The notes under the pieces were generated by a model. That model did no database searches, was not told the DNA's origin, and saw nothing but the letters and a program-made list of their open reading frames with translations. The position numbers and the translations under genes were made by a program. DNA of 64,000 nt from a virus. Of this stretch, positions 3,737-51,368 are shown in pieces. The stretch is taken from positions 13,725 through 77,724 of IMG/VR virus record IMGVR_UViG_3300042090_002000, one strand, 5' to 3'. How positions within the stretch are numbered: position 1 is the first letter of the stretch; each line of letters begins with the position of its first letter.

Positions 3737-4072
3737 ATGATTTCCCCGCAACAGATCGAAACAGTGCAGTGGGTGGACACCGCGATTCGCATTATTGGCT
3801 GGCCGACAGTTTTAGGTATCGTGGTGTGGGTTGTGCGTAAGTGGGACGCCGGGCAGCGCGAATTGAAAGAGTTGCACGTCAATGGCCGGGTGGCGGTCGA
3901 GACGATGAATTTGGTCAAGGCCGAAGTCGATACGATCAAGAATAACCACCTCGCACATCTTCAGACAGGCATCGAGCAGTTGGCGGGTAGTAACGACAAG
4001 GCCGTCGAAGTGCTCCAAGACATCAAAGCCGGAATCGGAATCCTAGTTGATCGCACCCCGCGAAAAGGTTAA
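3737..4072 (+). CDS. Holin-like membrane protein
   Basis: One N-terminal TM helix followed by a coiled coil. Lies downstream of a late-type promoter motif. Confidence 0.45.
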   Translation: MISPQQIETVQWVDTAIRIIGWPTVLGIVVWVVRKWDAGQRELKELHVNGRVAVETMNLVKAEVDTIKNNHLAHLQTGIEQLAGSNDKAVEVLQDIKAGIGILVDRTPRKG

Positions 4073-6591: not shown

Positions 6592-8070
6592 ATGGCGACA
6601 TACTATATTTCGTACTCTGCAGGTTCCGATAGCAACAACGGATTGTCGAAAACAACGCCGTGGCAGCGTCACCCATACATGCGCAAATTTGCAGGCAAGT
6701 ACACGCACGCTGCAGGTGACGTTTTTATTTTCAAGATGGGTGATAGCTGGCCGAACGCTTGCTTCGATATGGTGATCGGCGCAGGCGGAACGAGCAGCAC
6801 TCCTGATCAGTACACCTTCGATCCGACGTGGGGCACAAATCCCGGGACAGTTGGTAACACCGGGCAGACAGTCGGGGCTTACCAGTTCACCGCAGGCGGA
6901 GCCGCCATATCCGGCGGCGACGGATACAACAAATTTATTTTCAACGATGATGTGAACTACGTGACGTTCAATGGAATCGAGTTCACGGGCATGGTGTGGA
7001 CCGGGTCGCCCGCGTTCGGGAATCCGGCGATGATCGACTTGCAGCAGAGCACCAACGTGATTATCTCGAATTGCTATTTTCACGGGTGGGCGCACTCCAA
7101 CACAACATCGGACGCGCTGCTCTGTGTGCTGGGAAACGGGAACTCGCCGTACAACGCAGGCTGTCGCGTGACGGGCTGCGTATTCGATGGATTGAATTCC
7201 GGCGGCCCGGGCATCTCTGACAGCGGGTCGGCCACGTTTGCGATTCCTCTGTCCGACAACAACATCATTCGGAATATGTCCAACGGACTTCTGTTGAATG
7301 CCAACGGAGTGGCCCATGACAATCTGATCGGGCCGATCAACCAGTCTTTCGATTCCACGAATCATGAGAATTGCATTGAGCCCATCGACATGATCCCCGG
7401 GGGAACGTCGACGGTTTATATTTATAACAACGTGATTCATGACGCAACAGCCGCGATGATTTTGTGCCAAGGTGCGGCTCCGAACAATGGCGCGGAGATC
7501 GACTACGTTTGGAATAACGTGTTTTACGTGGGGACGGATGCCAATCCACCGATCCCACTGCAGTTCGATTCTATATCCACGAACATGGCGAACTGTCAAG
7601 TCCACGCATGGAACAACACCATCGTGGGCGGCGCAGGTGCGTGCATGCGTACTGTCAGTCGCGGCAATGGAAATTTCGGAGTGCTGGATATTCAGAATAA
7701 CCACTGCATCTCCGACACGGCAGCGCCCGGGGGCATCATCGAATTGGGCGTGACAGGTACCACCCTGAAAAATAACAACAACGTCCTGCAGACGCAGAAG
7801 GCAGCGGCTGCGCAGGGATACAGCAACACAGAGAAATTTTTCTACAGTCCGACTGCGGGCGGCGCAACGATTGGTGCGGGCGCGAACCTAGAAAGTCTGG
7901 CGACCGGCGCACTGGCTTCGTTGGCGCAGGACACAGGATACGCCGGAGAGCGCACTACTGTTGCCCGACCGACAAGTGGGGCGTGGGATGCTGGCGCATA
8001 TCAATTCGCGGCGGGTACAGGTACCGCACCAACACCGCCGACAAATCTTGAAATTGAGAACGTCGCTTAA
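6592..8070 (+). CDS. Right-handed parallel beta-helix protein (tailspike/depolymerase-like)
   Basis: Starts TYYIS...GSDSNNGLSKTTPW, has repeated I.NN.I/YNN beta-helix rungs, and ends with WDAGAYQF. Confidence 0.7.
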   Translation: MATYYISYSAGSDSNNGLSKTTPWQRHPYMRKFAGKYTHAAGDVFIFKMGDSWPNACFDMVIGAGGTSSTPDQYTFDPTWGTNPGTVGNTGQTVGAYQFTAGGAAISGGDGYNKFIFNDDVNYVTFNGIEFTGMVWTGSPAFGNPAMIDLQQSTNVIISNCYFHGWAHSNTTSDALLCVLGNGNSPYNAGCRVTGCVFDGLNSGGPGISDSGSATFAIPLSDNNIIRNMSNGLLLNANGVAHDNLIGPINQSFDSTNHENCIEPIDMIPGGTSTVYIYNNVIHDATAAMILCQGAAPNNGAEIDYVWNNVFYVGTDANPPIPLQFDSISTNMANCQVHAWNNTIVGGAGACMRTVSRGNGNFGVLDIQNNHCISDTAAPGGIIELGVTGTTLKNNNNVLQTQKAAAAQGYSNTEKFFYSPTAGGATIGAGANLESLATGALASLAQDTGYAGERTTVARPTSGAWDAGAYQFAAGTGTAPTPPTNLEIENVA

Positions 8071-8111: not shown

Positions 8112-8332
8112 GTCGGACCTACTCACGGGGATGCCACCGCCATCAGGACGTGCATAACGACCGGATGGCAAGCGTACCGTTAACTGCGACTTGAAGGTGT
8201 CTCCCTGAGTAGGCCTGACTGGTGGAGGTGAAATGGTTCCACTGGGATGTTCGTCGGTCACTGAACCAAGCCATGCATGCATGAAACTCATCCGGTCTGC
8301 TGCCGAACATCCCAGTGGGGCCGTTTCGCTCC
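8112..8332 (+). ncRNA. Structured RNA domain (two long hairpins with complementary loops), 5' of the tmRNA acceptor piece
   Basis: 8112-8138 pairs with 8196-8219 and 8224-8253 pairs with 8304-8332. Loop GACCGGATG (8159-8167) is the exact complement of loop CATCCGGTC (8289-8297). Confidence 0.7.
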
Positions 8333-8342
8333 GAAAGTTACG

Positions 8343-8682
8343 CTCGTAGAAAGGTCATGACTGCCTAAGTGGAAGGGAGTTCAACTCTCCCCCGATCCAC
8401 CCGATGAGTGATGCGCCATGGGTTTCGTGAAACCCGCCATCTGTTTGTGATCACTCATTCGGTGGGTCGGACGGGTTTCGACACATAGGTCGAGAAGTGA
8501 CGCTAGTTCGAGTCGAAGTGAACGCGACGTAATCGCGTATCAAACGATAGACGCCAAAACTAAAATGGCTAAGGTCCTTGCGTTCCCAGCAATGCGAACT
8601 GTGGCTCCGGCCCGACAGTTTGCGCTGGCTGCGTAAGAGCCGCCCGGGAGTGGCCGAAAGCTGCTCCCGGGATTTTAATTTT
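8343..8682 (+). ncRNA. ssrA: Circularly permuted (two-piece) tmRNA
   Basis: The T-arm GGGAG-TTCAACT-CTCCC and CCGATCC-A (8375-8399) precede the 5' end GGGTCGG-ACGGGTTTCGAC (8464). The acceptor stem has G3:U70 and A73. P2 helix pairings are present. The resume motif ATAGAC-GCC opens the tag AKTKMAKVLAFPAMRTVAPARQFALAA* (8553-8636). Confidence 0.92.
8643..8682 (+). terminator. Intrinsic terminator after the tmRNA coding piece
   Basis: CCCGGGAG...CTCCCGGG hairpin followed by ATTTTAATTTT. Confidence 0.7.
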
Positions 8683-9183
8683 ATGACAAAAAGTCTTGCA
8701 AAACAGAAAGAGTACCGCGACCGGCGAACTGCTGCCGGAATTTGCGTTGCTTGTGGTGGGTTATTATCAAGGAAGACCGTGATTTGTGCATCGTGTCAAG
8801 AAACACGCAATACGTATCGTCGTACTCGTCGAGCAGATCGCAAGAAAAAAGGGTTGTGTCCAGAATGTGGTGAGGTTGCTCCTAATGGGCGCACATACTG
8901 TTTGGATTGTGTTTTTCTGCATAGACTGGATTTATTAAAATTATCGCCTGAAGAGACGGAGCGAGCCGTTAAGGCATGGAATTCATTTCAGGGCGCATGC
9001 GAGTGTTGTGGGACTACTCAACCGCCAAAGCGGGGCTGGTTTATGGATCACGATCACAAAGCGAAAAAATTTCGAGGGATTATATGTCAATTTTGTAATA
9101 CAGGATTAGGGTATTTTTTCGACGATGTGACCAAACTTCACGCCGCAATCGAATATATAAAAAGGAGTCAAAATCGTGCCTAG
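8683..9183 (+). CDS. Endonuclease VII-like HNH nuclease
   Basis: CECCG...MDHDHKAKKFRGIICQFCNTGLG, with N-terminal CxxC repeats. Confidence 0.8.
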   Translation: MTKSLAKQKEYRDRRTAAGICVACGGLLSRKTVICASCQETRNTYRRTRRADRKKKGLCPECGEVAPNGRTYCLDCVFLHRLDLLKLSPEETERAVKAWNSFQGACECCGTTQPPKRGWFMDHDHKAKKFRGIICQFCNTGLGYFFDDVTKLHAAIEYIKRSQNRA

Positions 9184-9409
9184 TCATCGTTTCGAGGGCT
9201 TTACGCCGGTTACTGATAGCACGCACATGGATGGGTACAAGTATGATCCGGTGGGAAAAAAACTCACGGTGCGATTCAAGAACGGTTACGTTTACGAGGC
9301 CAGCGGCGTGTCGTCGGAGACGCATCAAGCATTCGTGTCTGCGCCATCACAGGGCACGCACTGGCATTGGGTCATCAAGGATAATCACAACATCACACGG
9401 GTAAAGTAG
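9176..9409 (+). CDS. KTSC domain protein
   Basis: STHMDGYKYDP...LTVRFKNGYVYE..GV......FVSAPSQG. Confidence 0.8.
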   Translation: MPSHRFEGFTPVTDSTHMDGYKYDPVGKKLTVRFKNGYVYEASGVSSETHQAFVSAPSQGTHWHWVIKDNHNITRVK

Positions 9410-9845
9410 GGCGTTCGTTCTCGAACGGCGCGAAACCATCCATTGTTATGTCTATATCGGCATCGGCGGCGTCATGACACTCTTCGTGCATACGCCAATT
9501 TTGAAATTCGCTCTCCCACATCCCGACAAACTGATAGTGAACCTCTCCCGCCGGAATGGATTGGCCACACCACGCGCAGCGATAGTTTTTCATTGCCCGT
9601 GGGTGTGACGATCTTCCGAAGTCGCTCATCAGTCGTTCTCCGGGCGCGCGAGTTCTCCGTAGATAACGGTTGGCTCTGGTGGTTGTGCCGGACGGTAGAA
9701 TGGCAAGCTGGCGCGGAACGAGTAGACCACCATTTGATCCCCTTCCAAACTAGAGAGCATCTTCGCCAGTCGTCTGCGCATGTCATGCACAGAGACGAGA
9801 GTTCCTTCACAATCCACATTGATGTTCAGTTGAGCCATATTCTCC

Positions 9846-29070: not shown

Positions 29071-30669
29071 ATGAGCAAACACACTCAGTACGGCGCGGAC
29101 GCGCGAGACGCGATCCTGCGTGGCGTGGATTTCCTTGTTGACGCTGTTGCATTGACTGAAGGGCCGCGTGGAAGAAATGTCATCATGGGGCAACGCGCGT
29201 TGGGTCAAACGCCGAAAGTTTCGCGCGACGGCGTGACCGTTGCGAACTATGTCGATCCGGTTGACCCCACTGAACAGATGGGCGCTGATCTGATCCGCGA
29301 GGCTTGCCAGAAAACCGACAACGTCGTTGGCGACGGCACGACCTGCACGGCTGTTCTTGCCCGCGCTATGATTCACGCTGGCTTTGATTTGATCACCAAG
29401 GGTGCGAACCCTTTGGCCATGGAGCGCGGCATTCATAAGGCCACGGCGCTTGTGATTGACCGGCTGCGCAAGATGGCTGTAGAAGTCTCCGGGGACAAAG
29501 TCTTTCAAGTTGCCACGGTGTCTGCGCACGGGGACACGGAGATCGGATGGCTTGTCGCGGAGGCTGTTGAGAAAGCGGGCAAGGATGGAATTGTGACGGC
29601 GGAACCATCCGTGACAGCGAAGACGTTTGTTGAGAACGCGCCCGGGCTGGAGTTGGAAAAATCGAATCTGCTTTCGCCGGTGTTCATCACGCACCCAGAG
29701 GAAATGAAAGCGGAGTTGCCGAATTGTCGCATCCTGTTGTGGGAAGGTGTGATCTCGTCTGCCAAGGCGGTTGTGCCGATCTTGTCGCAAGTCAAGGCCG
29801 ATAACACCCCGCTGCTGATCATTGCCGGAGGATACGAGGCCGAAGCATTGGCGTGCATCATCAAGAACAAGGCCGCGTTGGCGCTGCCAGTGAACGCAGT
29901 GCGCATGGAAGCCTACGGTGACCGGCGCAAGGAAGTGATGCGCGATATTGCCGCGCTAGTCGGCGGCACCGCGTACACGGAAGACATGGGAATGAAAATC
30001 GAAACGGTCGATCTGAAAAAGCTGGGTGTGGCGCGCAAGGTTGTCACCACCATGGCCAAAACGCAGATCATCGACGGCAAGGGCAGCCAAGTGGAATTGG
30101 CCGGGCGCATTGCCCATATCCGTACCGCTATCGAAGCGGCGGCTCCGGCGGAGCAACCCCCGCTGAAAACGCGACTGGCGGCGCTGCTGGGCGGCATCAC
30201 GATCATCAAAGTGGGCGGCACGACCGTCACGGAGATGGAAGAGAAGCGCGACCGTGTTGTCGATGCACTATCGGCGGCGAAGGCTGCGGTTGAGTCTGGC
30301 GTGGTCGCGGGCGGTGGCACTGCCATCTTCAATGCGGCATTTGGATTGAGTGAACGTACTCCACCCGTAGCGAGCGAAGAGGGACCCGGATTTTCTGTTG
30401 TGGCCAGCGCAGGGCGCGCGGTGGTCCGGCAGATCGCAGAGAACGCGGGCGTCAACGCGAACGAGATAATCGGTACTCTTTTATCAAGTCATGAGGGGCT
30501 GGGCTACAATGCGGTGACCGGAGAATTTGAAAATTTGGTTAACGCAGGAATTATCGATCCCGTGAAAGTTGTGATCGAAGCCCTGAAGAACGCGGCAGCG
30601 GTGGCTTGCAGCATCCTCACCATGGGAGCCACGGTGAGCGAAATTAAACAGGAGAAACAAAATGGATAG
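29071..30669 (+). CDS. groL: Chaperonin GroEL (divergent, phage-encoded)
   Basis: GPRGRNV, DGVTVA, GDGTT, GDRRK, RVVDAL, GVVAGGG, GIIDPVKV. No GGM tail. Confidence 0.95.
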   Translation: MSKHTQYGADARDAILRGVDFLVDAVALTEGPRGRNVIMGQRALGQTPKVSRDGVTVANYVDPVDPTEQMGADLIREACQKTDNVVGDGTTCTAVLARAMIHAGFDLITKGANPLAMERGIHKATALVIDRLRKMAVEVSGDKVFQVATVSAHGDTEIGWLVAEAVEKAGKDGIVTAEPSVTAKTFVENAPGLELEKSNLLSPVFITHPEEMKAELPNCRILLWEGVISSAKAVVPILSQVKADNTPLLIIAGGYEAEALACIIKNKAALALPVNAVRMEAYGDRRKEVMRDIAALVGGTAYTEDMGMKIETVDLKKLGVARKVVTTMAKTQIIDGKGSQVELAGRIAHIRTAIEAAAPAEQPPLKTRLAALLGGITIIKVGGTTVTEMEEKRDRVVDALSAAKAAVESGVVAGGGTAIFNAAFGLSERTPPVASEEGPGFSVVASAGRAVVRQIAENAGVNANEIIGTLLSSHEGLGYNAVTGEFENLVNAGIIDPVKVVIEALKNAAAVACSILTMGATVSEIKQEKQNG

Positions 30670-46092: not shown

Positions 46093-47088
46093 ATTATTCT
46101 ACCCCCCGGAGTTCAGAGTACCACACTTGCTGCGTTTCCGCAGATTGCCTATGATCGTCAAGCCATCATGGAATGGCAATTCAACACACCGTTCCTTGAG
46201 GAACTGTGCGATTTTCGTCCTCTGCCGCGTCGGTCTGGCCGGACACTTCAGTTCTACGGACAAACTCCGTACGCTGCCGCGACCTATGACCTGTCAGAAG
46301 GAATTCCGGGTCCGTCGCTCCAGTTGACCCAAGTTTTCAGCGACGCTTTCGCCGACGAATACGGCGACTGGATCGGCATTTCGAATGTGGCTCAGCAAAT
46401 GTTCCTCGCGGACATTACGCTGGATGCCAGCCGCAACTTGTCTTATCGCGGCGCGCTGACCAGCAACCTGATCGCGATCAACGGCTTTGAAGCCGCTGCT
46501 ACCGCGCAGGCTTCGGCCCGCATCGATTTGCTCGACAACGAGTTCATGCTGTCCAACACGATCCGCAAGAGCGAGTCCCAGTTGATGGGCAACGCTGTTC
46601 CGGGCCGCGACGGCGGGCTCTACACGTCGGCCATGCACCCGTACGTTGTGTACGACTTCATGTCGGACAACAGCGCAGGGTCGGCTGTCGACACACTCAA
46701 GCGGTCCACCGAAGGCGCGTCGGTTCTCAAGTCCGACATGACTCGCGGCTACACCGTTCTGGAATGGGCCGGTGTTCGCATTATCCGCACCCAGACCGTG
46801 CCGACGTACTCCAACTATCCTTCCGTCGGTAAGACGGGATACGCGACCTATATCGTTGGTCGCGAGGCAATGATGGCCTCTGAATTGCTGGGCAACCGCG
46901 TTCCGCGCAACCCCAGTTTCAAGGTGAACGTCAAGACCTTCGGCGATAACGACATTGATCTCTCGAACCCAATGCTCCAGACTCGCGCCATCGTGAGTTA
47001 TGACTGGTTCTTGGGAGTTGTGGCGCGCCCCAACACCAATAATACCGCAGGCTTTAGGCGCGTAAGAGGTGAAGTTTCAGCGGTTTAA
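46093..47088 (+). CDS. Major capsid protein (N4-gp56-like HK97 fold); predicted ATT start
   Basis: YDR...NTPF...RPLP..SG.T.QFY...LSEG, EYGDW, HPYVVYD and GVRIIRT. SD GAGGAG sits 7 nt before an in-frame ATT at 46093. Confidence 0.85.
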   Translation: MILPPGVQSTTLAAFPQIAYDRQAIMEWQFNTPFLEELCDFRPLPRRSGRTLQFYGQTPYAAATYDLSEGIPGPSLQLTQVFSDAFADEYGDWIGISNVAQQMFLADITLDASRNLSYRGALTSNLIAINGFEAAATAQASARIDLLDNEFMLSNTIRKSESQLMGNAVPGRDGGLYTSAMHPYVVYDFMSDNSAGSAVDTLKRSTEGASVLKSDMTRGYTVLEWAGVRIIRTQTVPTYSNYPSVGKTGYATYIVGREAMMASELLGNRVPRNPSFKVNVKTFGDNDIDLSNPMLQTRAIVSYDWFLGVVARPNTNNTAGFRRVRGEVSAV

Positions 47089-47107
47089 CGAACTTTGAAC
47101 TTTTCGC

Positions 47108-47136
47108 TTGACAAGTTTCTTGGTGTTGTTTAGAAT
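47108..47136 (+). promoter_or_regulatory. Sigma70 promoter of the downstream HNH gene
   Basis: TTGACA-17-TAGAAT. Confidence 0.7.
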
Positions 47137-47153
47137 GGGTCTTGGAGGCAATC

Positions 47154-47786
47154 ATGCCATACAAGGACCCACAGAAACAAAAAGAATACCAAGAGCGCTG
47201 GAAGGCCGCACACCCGGATAAAGTTCGGGAGTATGGACAAGAATCGGAAAAAAGGGAGTCCATTAAGGAAACCCGAAAACGATACCAGCAAAGCGAAGCG
47301 GGAAAAGAAAGTTCAAAACGCAGGCAAGAAAAGTATCGCGGGACCGAAAAGTCAAAAGAACGGTTCAAGCGGTATCGGGAACGGCACCCCGGCTTAGGAC
47401 GCGAGAACTGGTATAAAGGCCAGTACGGCGTTACGCCAGAAGAGTTTGAAGCACAGGTTGCGAAGCAAAACAATCTGTGCCCCATAGGAAACCATCCCTT
47501 TGGGCCTCGTGGCAGACAGGCAGATTCACCCTGTCAAGACCACGACCACAGGACCGGCGAGAATCGAGCCATCTTGTGCAAGAATCACAACTCGATGCTC
47601 GGTTTGGCTAACGACTCGGTTGATGATTTAGAATCAGCAATTTCGTACTTGAATTTGTTTAAAAAGGAAAACGACAATGTCCAACGCTTCAACAATTCGA
47701 CGGCAGATCGCGGGAACTCAGCAACTGACGCTGGCTCCTCTTTCTGGAACGACGATCACGACAACTCCGACCGCGTTCCAACTTAA
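47154..47786 (+). CDS. Endonuclease VII-like HNH nuclease
   Basis: YGVTPEEF...QDHDHRTGENRAILCKNHNSMLG. Confidence 0.8.
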   Translation: MPYKDPQKQKEYQERWKAAHPDKVREYGQESEKRESIKETRKRYQQSEAGKESSKRRQEKYRGTEKSKERFKRYRERHPGLGRENWYKGQYGVTPEEFEAQVAKQNNLCPIGNHPFGPRGRQADSPCQDHDHRTGENRAILCKNHNSMLGLANDSVDDLESAISYLNLFKKENDNVQRFNNSTADRGNSATDAGSSFWNDDHDNSDRVPT

Positions 47787-48300
47787 CAACAACGGGCTGA
47801 CGCTGACTGGCGGGGGCGTTATTCCTCTGTCCGCCGGTGTGACTGGGCTGTATGCGGGTACTGGACAGGTTCTTTGGGTCCATGCCGCTGGCCAGTTAAC
47901 TGGCGGGACGGTTAGCTCCACCACTCTGATCATCAAGCTGTATCAAGTTCCTGCGTCTTTGCTCCCGATTGCCAATACACTCTCTGGCGCACAGACGTTC
48001 ACGAACTGGAACCTGCTTGCCACGGGACCAACGGGTACGCTGGGCTCCACTGAAACACAAGGGTCGTTCACTCTTGACGCATATCTTCAGTTGGATGGCC
48101 AAGGAAATTTGGACGGCAACTTCCAGGCCCTGAGTTTGAACAATTTCGGGACTTCGGCAGGCGCGGTGCCTACCAAGACGACATTGGCCACAGGTTTGGT
48201 CGGCGAAGCCGATCTGAACTTCGTGATCGTGGCTGTTCTTGGGGGAACGGAAACCGGCGTCGTGCTGACGCTCGATGAATTCTCGCTGAACTACGTGTAA
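47677..48300 (+). CDS. Putative capsid decoration/structural protein
   Basis: Thr/Gly-rich beta protein after the major capsid gene, followed by a terminator. Confidence 0.55.
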   Translation: MSNASTIRRQIAGTQQLTLAPLSGTTITTTPTAFQLNNNGLTLTGGGVIPLSAGVTGLYAGTGQVLWVHAAGQLTGGTVSSTTLIIKLYQVPASLLPIANTLSGAQTFTNWNLLATGPTGTLGSTETQGSFTLDAYLQLDGQGNLDGNFQALSLNNFGTSAGAVPTKTTLATGLVGEADLNFVIVAVLGGTETGVVLTLDEFSLNYV

Positions 48301-48339
48301 TCGTCCGCGAACAACATTTTCGGGCGAAAGCCCAAATCA

Positions 48340-48376
48340 CCCCTTGGGCTGGAAGGCTCAAGGGGTTTTCTTTTTC
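48340..48376 (+). terminator. Intrinsic terminator
   Basis: CCCCTTGGGC...GCTCAAGGGG hairpin followed by TTTTCTTTTT. Confidence 0.8.
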
Positions 48377-48456
48377 TTGGGTATTACACCCACGGGCGGC
48401 GCGCGGCGGCATGAACAGGCTTCGGTAACCGGGCCGTCGCGCAGACCGTCAAATTT

Positions 48457-48530
48457 AGATCGGTAAGATAGTGGAAGTCTAGCCGCCTCCAAATCGGCGA
48501 GCGGAGGTTCGATTCCTCCCTGATCTGCCA
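48457..48530 (+). tRNA. tRNA-Trp(CCA)
   Basis: Acceptor AGATCGG/CTGATCT, anticodon loop CTCCAAA, T arm GGAGG-TTCGATT-CCTCC, G73 and encoded CCA. Confidence 0.9.
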
Positions 48531-48532
48531 AC

Positions 48533-48589
48533 GGCGGGACATCAGTCGGGCTTTGAAACCCGGCGTCGGCTAGACCGACCCCGCCACCA
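48533..48589 (+). ncRNA. D-armless minimal tRNA-like RNA (57 nt) ending ACCA
   Basis: GGCGGG/CCCGCC acceptor, GTCGGG-CTTTGAAA-CCCGGC arm and GTCGG-CTAGA-CCGAC arm. Confidence 0.65.
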
Positions 48590-48639
48590 ATTTTGCAAAC
48601 GCATCGCCGTCGCGTGAATGCAGGAGTTTACGGCGCAGA

Positions 48640-48711
48640 GCGGGCACGCACTTGGGTGTAGTTCGGGCGGCCACCCGGATGGCGGTTCGAATCCGCGAGA
48701 AGCCCGCTCCA
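48640..48711 (+). ncRNA. Aberrant tRNA-like RNA ending CCA
   Basis: GCGGGC/GCCCGC stem, small D-like arm, 6-nt anticodon-position loop, GCGG-TTCGAAT-CCGC T arm and a GAGAA insertion. Confidence 0.55.
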
Positions 48712-48716
48712 TTTTT

Positions 48717-49224
48717 GGGAATTATATAGTTGACTCCCTCATGAAAACAGGAGATTTATGAACGAAACGAAATCATTACGACAACATCCCTTTGTGCTGG
48801 CATGGATAGCTGAATTCCAGAAAGATCCTTGGCATACTAAGTATCCCGATTGTCGCCGCTGTGGGTTTCCGCACAGCGATGTTCTGCTTTGCAACGGAGC
48901 ACCCTTCGGTTGTCTTTACATTGGAGGAGAGCCCTACTCTGTTGATATTTCAAATGTTGCTTGGATGGTGCAGTTCAGAGAGCAGAGTAGGCCCGGATTT
49001 CATCGGCGAGACGATATTTATTTTCAAAGGATGGATGACGGCAGTGTTCGCGTTACATCCTTTTGGCAGTATAACAACTGCCCGCAAGAAAAGGTGTGGA
49101 CAATCCCCAGTTCCGAATGGGCGTCTATAGTAAGTTCGGTGAGTACGGCGGGAGAAACCACTGAATCCTATCAACAGGCGTTGGAGTTTCACGGCAAATC
49201 GAGGGATTCATCTATATAATTCCC
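48717..49224. mobile_element. Non-autonomous IS1595-like (ISNwi1-type ends) cassette carrying a 153-aa passenger gene (48758-49219)
   Basis: 24-bp terminal inverted repeats (22/24 match) starting GGGAATTATATAG. 8-bp direct repeat CCATTTTT at 48709-48716 and 49225-49232. Confidence 0.75.
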
Positions 49225-49266
49225 CCATTTTTTGCTTGACGGCATGCCATGAGCGTGCTATGATTC

Positions 49267-49341
49267 GCAGGGCTGGCTCAATGGCACAGCAGGAGTTTTG
49301 TAAACTCCCATTTCGCGGTTCAAGTCCGCGGCCCTGCCCCA
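49267..49341 (+). tRNA. tRNA-Thr(TGT)
   Basis: Acceptor GCAGGGC/GCCCTGC, anticodon arm GGAGT-TTTGTAA-ACTCC, T arm CGCGG-TTCAAGT-CCGCG, CCA. Confidence 0.9.
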
Positions 49342-49353
49342 GATCGAGGGAGC

Positions 49354-49836
49354 ATGATTCGAGTGAATCTGTTGCGGCGAGTGAAAGCGATCAAATATCG
49401 CGGACACCATAAACGAGACGCGGTAGGGAATGTCGTCTCCCGCGCGGCGGAAACGCGCAGACACCGCCTCGCGCACCCCGGGCAGCGAAAAAGATGGGAT
49501 ACAACCTATCGGCAATCGGAAGCTGGGGAAGCCAGCCATCAAAAATATAACGATTCAGAGAAAGGCCAGCGCGCGGCTCAGAATCAATATCTGCAATGGA
49601 AGTATGGTAAAGGATTGGCAGATAAAGCGGAGCAGCATGAAAAACAACAGGGTTTGTGTGGCGTTTGTGGCAAGCCGCTTTCTGTGAATTTGGATGAATG
49701 CCACTGGGACCACAACCATAAAACAGGGGAGCTACGCGACGTGGTGCATCCTCGATGCAACATCGCTATAGGGTTCATTGAAAGTGAGTTGTTGACGCCT
49801 GTTTTAACGTATTTGAAGAGGCACGATAATGTATGA
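49354..49836 (+). CDS. Endonuclease VII-like HNH nuclease
   Basis: QQGLCGVC...HWDHNHKTGELRDVVHPRCNIAIG. Confidence 0.8.
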   Translation: MIRVNLLRRVKAIKYRGHHKRDAVGNVVSRAAETRRHRLAHPGQRKRWDTTYRQSEAGEASHQKYNDSEKGQRAAQNQYLQWKYGKGLADKAEQHEKQQGLCGVCGKPLSVNLDECHWDHNHKTGELRDVVHPRCNIAIGFIESELLTPVLTYLKRHDNV

Positions 49837-50443
49837 CTTTGATCCAAAGAAACAGCTAATTGCCTACCTTGTAAGACATGGCGAGTTAGTCAATATGCGT
49901 TGCTGGGATGGGTGGGGTAACTACGAATTATCGGACGAAGGTCACCAGCAGGCCGAACGCGCCGCGCAATGGCTCTCTTTCGAGCGCATAGGCCGGGTCA
50001 TCTCCTCCGACGTACCGCGCACCATGCAGACAGCGCAATACCTCATGAACACGGGTTGTGTTCTTTGCCCGTTCCTCAGTACTGATCCGAATTTGCGCCC
50101 ATGGAACGTCGCAGGTTTCACAGGCAAGCAAAAGACGCCGGAGCGCATCGCGGAGTTCGCGAAATACATGGTCGACCCGACGCTCGTAATTCCCGATGGC
50201 GAGAGCCGCCAGCAGTTGGATCAGCGTGTTCAGGTCATCTACCAGTACGCCACGGTGCCTTATAAGGGGTGCCCGACCGCTTTTTTCATTCACAATTCCG
50301 TTATCAAGGCCTTGATGGGGATCGATGATATCAAGGATGCTTGTTCGCCGGGTGGGATCGTCGGCATGTTCATGGATGAACAAGGGAAAATTTTCTTTGA
50401 GATTCTACTTGGAAAAGTAGAAACAGAAATCGGAGTTTCGTAA
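49829..50443 (+). CDS. Histidine phosphatase (phosphoglycerate mutase superfamily)
   Basis: LVRHGE, LSDEG, SSDVPRTMQTA, GES, FIHNSVIKAL. Confidence 0.85.
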   Translation: MYDFDPKKQLIAYLVRHGELVNMRCWDGWGNYELSDEGHQQAERAAQWLSFERIGRVISSDVPRTMQTAQYLMNTGCVLCPFLSTDPNLRPWNVAGFTGKQKTPERIAEFAKYMVDPTLVIPDGESRQQLDQRVQVIYQYATVPYKGCPTAFFIHNSVIKALMGIDDIKDACSPGGIVGMFMDEQGKIFFEILLGKVETEIGVS

Positions 50444-51368
50444 TGAGCACAACACCGCAACCTTTTCTCGATCACGCCCGCCCGATTCTGGACGGCGACC
50501 CGGCCTTGTCCGACGAGCATAAGGCCGACCTGTGGGACATCTTTCATAATTCGAAATCGTCCGACGAACTGGCCCATCATTTGCAGCCGCTGTCGGTGTC
50601 CGACGAAACCAAACAGGCGTTGCACGAAGCCAAGCAGAAATCTACCCCGGAACCCGCACCGGCGGATCATATCGTGGACGCCCTTACCCGGCTCTCCAAT
50701 ATGGACCCCAAGATTGTCGAACTGGCCGAATCTCATCCAAACATCTTAAAGGCCATCGTGGGCACCGTTGCCGCCGGGCACAAAGCGGCTGGGAAGGCTT
50801 CTGGCGCATCAAAAGGCGGGGATAAGGGTAAAACACCATCTGCTGCCGGATCGTCGTCCAGTGCCTCGCCAGAGGCGGCTCCGGCCCCTCATGTCGTTGT
50901 CGTGGCTCCCCAAGTGACTCCCAATACACCCGACGCCGCTGCGCCAACTGCGGCATAAAAATTGCTGGACATCCCCGGGAATCGGGTGTAGAGTCGGCAA
51001 TCGGAGACCCACCATGACAAAAGAAATTATTTTCGATTTGGAGTTTACTGCGTCCGGTCACGTCGCTCCGATATCTCACCGGGGACGCGGATTTCTCTTA
51101 GCGGTTGCGGATCGTTGCGTTGACGCGCGCGAAATATACCAACGCGCGATGCGCATGGGCCTGCACGCGCGTTTTGAAAACGCCACGGCTCGCGATCTAA
51201 TTGCCGCTGTCTAATTTCGCAACATCGAGGTGGTCCCATGTTCGACCGTCTGCTGATGGTATTGGAGATTCTACTTTTGATTTGGATTGTGATTCAAGGC
51301 GAGTACGTTCGATTCTATGAACGAGAAGTTTTTCGCATGAACAAAGACCGGTACGAGGAGCGCGCAAA

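Follow-up and report, generated by a model that had tools for sequence, protein, structure and literature searches.

Here we describe a 57-nt tRNA-like element encoded on the plus strand at 48533-48589 of the window, the 64,000-nucleotide stretch of phage DNA analysed as a whole. We read this mini-tRNA, at about even odds (roughly 50 %), as a miniaturised, remodelled and non-decoding descendant of a tRNA gene that would make up the second, downstream part of a dimeric Trp-X precursor and has kept the features recognised by RNase P. It is most likely a strain-specific aberrant tRNA gene within a phage tRNA array, which is a known sort of object, and not a new adaptor.

RNAfold returns exactly the anatomy that an initial annotation had drawn from the letters of the sequence: a 6-bp acceptor stem, a 6-bp anticodon-like stem and a 5-bp T-like stem, leaving unpaired a 6-nt linker, an 8-nt anticodon-like loop, a 5-nt T-like loop and the ACCA end. 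From 5′ to 3′ the mini-tRNA consists of GGCGGG (acceptor 5′ strand, 48533-48538), ACATCA (the linker that replaces the D arm, 48539-48544), GTCGGG CTTTGAAA CCCGGC (the anticodon-like hairpin, 48545-48564, with one G-U pair in its stem and the loop CUUUGAAA), GTCGG CTAGA CCGAC (the T-like hairpin, 48565-48579, whose CUAGA loop is devoid of a TPsiC motif) and CCCGCC ACCA (acceptor 3′ strand, discriminator A and encoded CCA, 48580-48589). There is no variable region. All 17 pairs, comprising 15 G-C, one A-U and one G-U, are intact, and the minimum free energy structure (-29.1 kcal/mol, z -4.21) accounts for 91 % of the ensemble. None of 200 shuffled sequences folded as well. The same fold is obtained within a 341-nt context, adjoining an intact tRNA-Trp cloverleaf, while the minus strand folds more weakly (z -2.2) and the sole G-U pair is compatible with the plus strand only. 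A permissive descriptor of D-armless, NCCA-ended three-way junctions, run over both strands of the window, matched the mini-tRNA site only; in the related loci (564 kb) a single, weaker site came up, against a background of 0.07 sites per random 64-kb sequence. The fold is thus real and not due to chance, and the earlier argument that intact pairing speaks against plain decay is accepted, with 17/17 pairs kept.

The window belongs to a 77.7-kb IMG/VR virus record, estimated to be 78 % complete, of an uncultivated tailed phage from a wetland with genes for terminase, portal, major head protein, GroEL, DNA polymerase and helicase. A strong terminator (48339-48366, followed by a T run) closes the upstream structural operon. 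Downstream of it and upstream of the tRNA array, a GC-rich leader hairpin on the plus strand (48394-48445, GCGCGGCGGC...GCCGTCGCGC) pairs in the 341-nt fold; its stems are common to the relative L043, and the region is matched by blastn in L006, L007, L012, L014, L017 and L039. No sigma-70-like promoter was found between the terminator and tRNA-Trp, and the leader hairpin may belong to a phage-specific signal for start or processing. The array opens on the plus strand with tRNA-Trp(CCA) at 48457-48530, called by ARAGORN and scoring 50.3 bits with Rfam RF00005, with an encoded GCCA end. The mini-tRNA begins 2 nt past the end of this gene at 48530, as the initial annotation had noted. The T-like hairpin is complementary to tRNA-Trp at 12/14 positions, a match that we set aside as chance, for within the 341-nt context it is no competitor of the fold.

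Behind the mini-tRNA lies a trailer spacer on the plus strand (48590-48639) beginning ATTTTGCAAACG, 41/49 identical to the trailer of tRNA-Ile in L043 and opening in the same way as the sequence after tRNA-Gly in L021. It is followed on the same strand by a second non-canonical tRNA-like element (48640-48711) with a 6-bp acceptor stem and a TCCA end, for which there is no Rfam hit and ARAGORN reports only a weak tRNA-Tyr at the 80 % threshold. A MITE-like cassette of 524 bp (48709-49232) comes after this second element. Its 24-nt inverted ends (48717-48740 and 49201-49224) are 92 % complementary, its 8-bp duplication CCATTTTT includes the CCA of the second element, and its one ORF, of 153 aa, has no PHROG match. 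A promoter-like site (49236-49264, TTGACG-17-TATGAT with a TG extension) lies 2 nt upstream of tRNA-Thr(UGU), and single array members seem to own their promoters. All four RNA elements of the array (4/4) have an encoded NCCA end. No further tRNA was found in the first 13.8 kb of the record, and the record holds no gene for a CCA-adding enzyme, RtcB, RNA ligase or tRNA repair.

Sequence comparison shows that the mini-tRNA descends from a phage tRNA gene. Its relatives were taken as 63 IMG/VR loci recovered by their major head protein, at 75-98 % identity. In one of them, L043, the same slot between the shared leader hairpin and the shared trailer is occupied by a full-length tRNA-Ile(GAT), which is the closest match to the mini-tRNA among all array tRNAs. 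The six acceptor pairs and the ACCA end are identical in the two: GGCGGG equals positions 2-7 of the tRNA-Ile acceptor stem in L043 and L027, the mini-tRNA 3′ end aligns with that of the L043 gene, and the blastn match extends from the final 11 nt of the mini-tRNA through into the trailer. The GTCGG of the anticodon-like stem is also the 5′ strand of the anticodon stem of the L043 tRNA-Ile, and GTCGG/CCGAC, the T-like stem, recurs as the T stem of full-length phage tRNAs, namely tRNA-Ala in L041 and tRNA-Asn in L084. A tRNA-derived origin is therefore established by the synteny with L043, the common acceptor and ACCA, and a T-like stem found in full-length phage tRNAs. When full-length tRNAs with the T and acceptor stems of the mini-tRNA were sought, a single one came up, the tRNA-Asn of the unrelated phage L084; the match marks the stems as ordinary tRNA stems and is not taken as a sign of ancestry.

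The tRNA-Ile gene of L043 carries two direct repeats, CAGTTGG in the D loop and CAGTCGG in the anticodon stem. A single deletion between them would plausibly have removed the D arm and left the junction ...TCA-GTCGG present in the mini-tRNA, whose linker ends in TCA immediately 5′ of GTCGG, like the Ile gene repeats GCTCA-GTTGG and GAGCA-GTCGG. The mini-tRNA and any full-length tRNA are separated by at least four separate length changes, and its interior has diverged from the Ile gene much further than the flanks have (about 84 % identical), with no helix broken. Relative to the Ile gene, the T-like and anticodon-like stems are changed on both strands in a compensated manner. These remaining differences are neither simple nor obviously recent, which is not the picture of a simple recent deletion. 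Since neutral decay is expected to break helices, their integrity implies that the fold has been under some selection or that there was a closer ancestor, as yet unseen. The initial annotation had held that relatives with a full-length tRNA in this place, altered by a simple recent deletion, would speak against its reading; L043 has the full-length tRNA, so that the objection holds in part, and a deletion of that kind is not seen.

The mini-tRNA lacks the body features normally required for decoding or charging, and it is most likely incapable of decoding. Over 47000-50500, Rfam RF00005 (family threshold 29 bits) gave no match to the mini-tRNA at E<=10, with both flanking tRNAs above 50 bits. 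ARAGORN made no call of it at default, -ps or -ps80 settings, and no call at 48533-48589 in mitochondrial mode (-mt, -mt -ps). Compared with the canonical cloverleaf, the D arm, the 7-bp acceptor, the 7-nt anticodon loop and a GTTCRAnnC-type T loop are all missing. With D-armless mitochondrial-type tRNAs it shares a connector in place of the D arm and retained acceptor, anticodon and T arms, and it departs from them in having a loop of 8 nt instead of 7 and in the silence of ARAGORN's mitochondrial mode. It has the extra loop base of a +1 suppressor, without the normal tRNA body. As a tRNA-derived remnant it has its slot, leader, trailer, acceptor pairs and ACCA in common with the L043 tRNA-Ile(GAT). 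As to selection, the mini-tRNA is conserved nowhere searched, yet 17/17 pairs are intact.

What has been kept is the set of features that RNase P and 3′ trimming would use. G48533-C48585 corresponds to the G+1/C+72 pair, the acceptor is stacked on a T-type stem, the 3′ end is RCCA, and the 11-bp acceptor/T-like stack has a 3′ strand that is continuous through the 5-bp and 6-bp stems. Bacterial RNase P requires a stack of acceptor and T stems as well as the RCCA end and cleaves acceptor/T-stem hairpin model substrates made up of these parts alone, and in phage T4 six of the eight tRNAs mature from dimeric precursors (PMC11143913). Given the 2-nt gap, a spacing that is usual for tRNA dimers among these related phages, the mini-tRNA is probably co-transcribed with tRNA-Trp, which we take, at about even odds, to be the upstream half of a dimeric precursor with the mini-tRNA. 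Because the substrate features are kept and the element sits in the position of the second tRNA of a dimer, we infer that RNase P probably cuts at the 5′ end of the mini-tRNA and so also frees the 3′ end of tRNA-Trp. After a history in which the D arm was lost, plausibly by one deletion between direct repeats, the variable region and T-loop motif disappeared as well and the anticodon hairpin was remodelled, the 57-nt product would play no part in translation, being presumably neither charged nor decoding, and any benefit would come from its putative use as a processing handle. Several observations sit awkwardly with this reading. All 17 pairs are intact, 15 of them G-C, despite at least four length changes; a perfect anticodon-like hairpin is superfluous for a processing handle; the stack measures 11 bp, whereas RNase P measures 12 bp; and the metatranscriptome support comes from contigs only, in which DNA carry-over is possible.

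The mini-tRNA appears as a strain-specific singleton among the relatives and collections searched. Blastn found none in the 63 related loci, and a 291-nt stretch around the mini-tRNA gave only tRNA-Trp-like matches in 50,697 phage records. An exact 20-mer of it was absent from IMG/VR. Patterns with fixed loop and free stems found no homologue in IMG/VR or in 185,579 prokaryotic genomes (one genome per species); a looser loop pattern gave 14 matches in IMG/VR, none with the fold, and a pattern with fixed stems and free loops gave six matches in the genomes, all in high-GC coding DNA without acceptor stem or CCA. The homolog search with a custom covariance model that the initial annotation had proposed was equally empty: a single-sequence model, run over the window, 48 relatives (553 kb) and the rest of the record, recovered the mini-tRNA itself and nothing else. 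A pattern spanning the joint of 3′ end and trailer gave only the L043 contig in IMG/VR, and seven JGI metagenome matches that are chance. The tRNA-Trp allele of the window and the second element (48640-48711) are likewise absent from IMG/VR.

The identical mini-tRNA sequence occurs in three runs, including an independent wetland DNA run and a wetland metatranscriptome, so that an assembly artefact is ruled out. In the metatranscriptome, one contig matches 48200-48750 throughout with no mismatch, at a word depth of 12.6 compared with 3.7 and 4.3 for the next contigs. The runs are kept as contigs, in which RNA ends are not visible and DNA carry-over is possible, and the contig is thus weak evidence that the mini-tRNA is transcribed. 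A lack of expression, named beforehand as a finding that would count against the mini-tRNA, is at any rate not what this contig indicates. Array parts without cover in runs X4 and X5 are uninformative either way.

Two alternatives accept the tRNA origin and differ from a processing handle in what the element does. The initial annotation had favoured a tRNA mimic, of which the tRNA-like nature stands; the decoy, aminoacyl carrier and frameshift roles found no direct support, and the mini-tRNA is a singleton. As a mimic, a stable, CCA-ended processed RNA would titrate a host anticodon nuclease, a tRNA-tail nuclease or another tRNA-binding enzyme, a reading that we consider unlikely. It would account for perfect and very stable helices despite heavy remodelling, and for a loop, CUUUGAAA, that resembles a real anticodon loop in its C32-U33-like start and in the purines that follow a UUG/UGA triplet. 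The mini-tRNA also lies within an RNA contig, and other NCCA-ended odd elements recur in the arrays of relatives, that of L043 also being D-armless. Defences that cleave tRNAs are known to be countered by phage tRNAs (PMC10264068, PMC11464382, PMC11555353), and there are nucleases whose target is the tRNA tail (PMC12851939). However, the known phage counter-measures are full-length, chargeable replacement tRNAs and not decoys, the record is without a tRNA repair or CCA-adding gene, and a homologue occurs in no relative or collection searched, so that neither conservation nor covariation backs a mimic. Somewhat more doubtful still is the wider proposal of a functional non-decoding mimic belonging to an undescribed class of compact CCA-ended look-alikes in phage tRNA arrays, whose target would be a host defence or tRNA-directed enzyme; members of that putative class would include the TCCA-ended neighbours in the window and in relatives. 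A dead tRNA pseudogene, neither excised nor useful, recent in the strain and bound to be lost, we hold to be as improbable as the mimic. The mini-tRNA is a singleton within a fast-turnover array, L043 has a full-length tRNA in its slot, and degenerate tRNA remnants occur in relatives, all of which a dead gene would explain. Such a gene would hardly keep 17/17 pairs, the ACCA end and a standard trailer, nor would it be expected to show an interior far more diverged than its flanks with helices unbroken, and the same sequence is found in three runs.

The other two alternatives are far less credible. That the mini-tRNA decodes, as a D-armless tRNA that either reads a triplet (with UUG = Gln or UGA = Ser as anticodon) or takes four bases as a codon and so shifts the frame by +1, is very improbable for an element that is rejected by every tRNA model and finder run, including ARAGORN's mitochondrial mode, and that has neither D arm nor variable region nor T-loop motif on an acceptor of only 6 bp. 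The acceptor-stem identity marks G3:U70, G-1 and U73 are all absent from the mini-tRNA, which also shows no conservation. To our knowledge, armless tRNAs occur only alongside translation factors that have co-evolved with them, and this further weighs against decoding. What remains in its favour is an encoded CCA and an 8-nt loop with a U33-like U and an A37-like A, together with the precedents that D-armless tRNAs function in animal mitochondria (PMC6158502, PMC2797822) and that quadruplets are readable by tRNAs with an extra loop base (10.1101/2020.12.31.424971). The initial annotation had connected the 8-nt loop with +1 frameshifting, which such a loop does not imply alone: yeast mt-tRNA-Thr(UAG) has one, and a frame shift is not obligatory with it (PMC7609411). 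The quadruplets at which a +1 shift would be expected, UCAA or CAAA, are too common to be diagnostic. Least probable of all is that the site is not tRNA-related and consists of a pair of chance hairpins, or acts as a terminator or an attenuator behind tRNA-Trp. GC-rich hairpins and a short U run (AUUUU) 5 nt downstream could suggest as much, but the terminator scan called nothing at the site, the descriptor background is only 0.07 per 64 kb, and the closing 6-bp stem, the ACCA, the shared acceptor and the synteny with tRNA-Ile indicate tRNA origin.

The mini-tRNA resembles several known systems in part. Like the D-armless tRNAs of animal mitochondria (mt-tRNA-Ser(AGY), nematode and mite tRNAs), it has a short connector for the D arm and a length in the range of about 55-60 nt (PMC6158502, PMC2797822, PMC7609411), and both combine a non-canonical T loop with retained acceptor and anticodon arms. 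The mitochondrial tRNAs, however, are conserved, charged and decoding, with 7-nt loops and co-evolved organelle factors, whereas the mini-tRNA, a singleton in a phage, has a loop of 8 nt and an acceptor of 6 bp, lacks a variable region and encodes its CCA. With RNase P model substrates and T4 dimers it shares a G1-C72 acceptor on a T-type stem, ACCA and a position a few nt behind a tRNA (PMC11143913). This likeness is one of predicted fold, and the mini-tRNA differs from the model substrates in a stack of 11 bp, not 12, and in an extra hairpin that branches at the junction. Plant mitochondrial t-elements are likewise tRNA-derived, non-decoding folds, and direct endonucleolytic processing (PMC1920247); they flank mRNAs and are conserved, whereas the mini-tRNA adjoins a tRNA and no conservation is seen.

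Prokaryotic tRNA gene fragments and pseudogenes are also non-canonical derivatives of tRNA genes (bioRxiv 10.1101/2022.07.05.498093). Those known are terminal portions that element integration has left behind or that have entered CRISPR arrays as spacers, whereas the mini-tRNA has both ends, has lost its interior and has re-formed its helices. SufB2 +1 frameshift suppressors have an eight-base loop as well (bioRxiv 10.1101/2020.12.31.424971), but suppressors of this type keep the full cloverleaf and synthetase identity and the mini-tRNA has neither. Phage tRNAs that overcome defences are similar in their location in a phage tRNA array and in their altered anticodon loop; they are full-length and functional, and replace cleaved host tRNAs, with no non-decoding decoy described among them (PMC10264068, PMC11464382, PMC11555353). 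Read as a relic, the mini-tRNA offers a clear single example of a phage tRNA gene that shrinks with every helix kept and shows how quickly such arrays are reshuffled between leader and trailer modules that stay conserved. Should it be excised and stable, its candidate roles would be those of a processing signal or of a mimic directed at host enzymes that act on tRNA. A D-armless RNA working in bacterial-type translation would be a real surprise, and the evidence here is against it.

Turnover is a general property of the array in this phage group. A tRNA array occupies this place in all relatives whose flanks extend far enough, and its content differs almost each time, the tRNAs for Ala, Met, Gly, Thr, Pro, Trp, Asn and Ile being combined in 17 distinct layouts. 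Spacers of 2-10 nt between neighbouring array tRNAs are common among these relatives. The trailer CCA(A)TTTTGCAAACG is common to the mini-tRNA (48586-48601), the L043 tRNA-Ile (9384-9399) and the L021 tRNA-Gly (7309-7323), and the repeated leader and trailer modules are probably recombination substrates that shuffle tRNA-sized cassettes. In the window, endonuclease VII-like ORFs (47142-47786 and 49354-49836, PHROG 2914/2633) lie on either side of the array. Homing-type nucleases in phage tRNA clusters drive local rearrangement (PMC13096335), and the array turnover seen here is consistent with these flanking genes. The array of L039 holds a sub-threshold tRNA remnant (8507-8560, 24.6 bits with RF00005, model positions 6-65), showing that decaying tRNA genes are present in these arrays. 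A fragment resembling a lone T arm lies nearby at 8666-8710, and the two are found between tRNA-Gly and tRNA-Thr.

Besides the mini-tRNA, other non-canonical tRNA-like elements were noted in the arrays: L009 9240-9314, L027 3834-3903, L042 9121-9193, L043 9442-9508 and the second element of the window (48640-48711). They start with GC, end in GC-U-CCA and usually stand before tRNA-Thr or after tRNA-Gly. Their interiors are wholly different while the acceptor pairing is kept, and none matches the Rfam tRNA model at E<=1. The elements of L027 and L042 look homologous, with covarying stems, and that of L043 (9442-9508) is D-armless like the mini-tRNA. Directly 5′ of the TCCA element of L027 (about 3797-3826) stands the same promoter-like module as upstream of tRNA-Thr(UGU) in the window. 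Between the same ends as those of the MITE-like cassette, runs X2 and X4 have different contents, and L043 carries a form of about 190 bp at 9503-9691. Elsewhere, ARAGORN reports a circularly permuted (two-piece) tmRNA at 8310-8727 with the tag AKTKMAKVLAFPAMRTVAPARQFALAA, and the phage encodes its GroEL-type chaperonin at 29071-30669 (PHROG 5725, E 2e-118).
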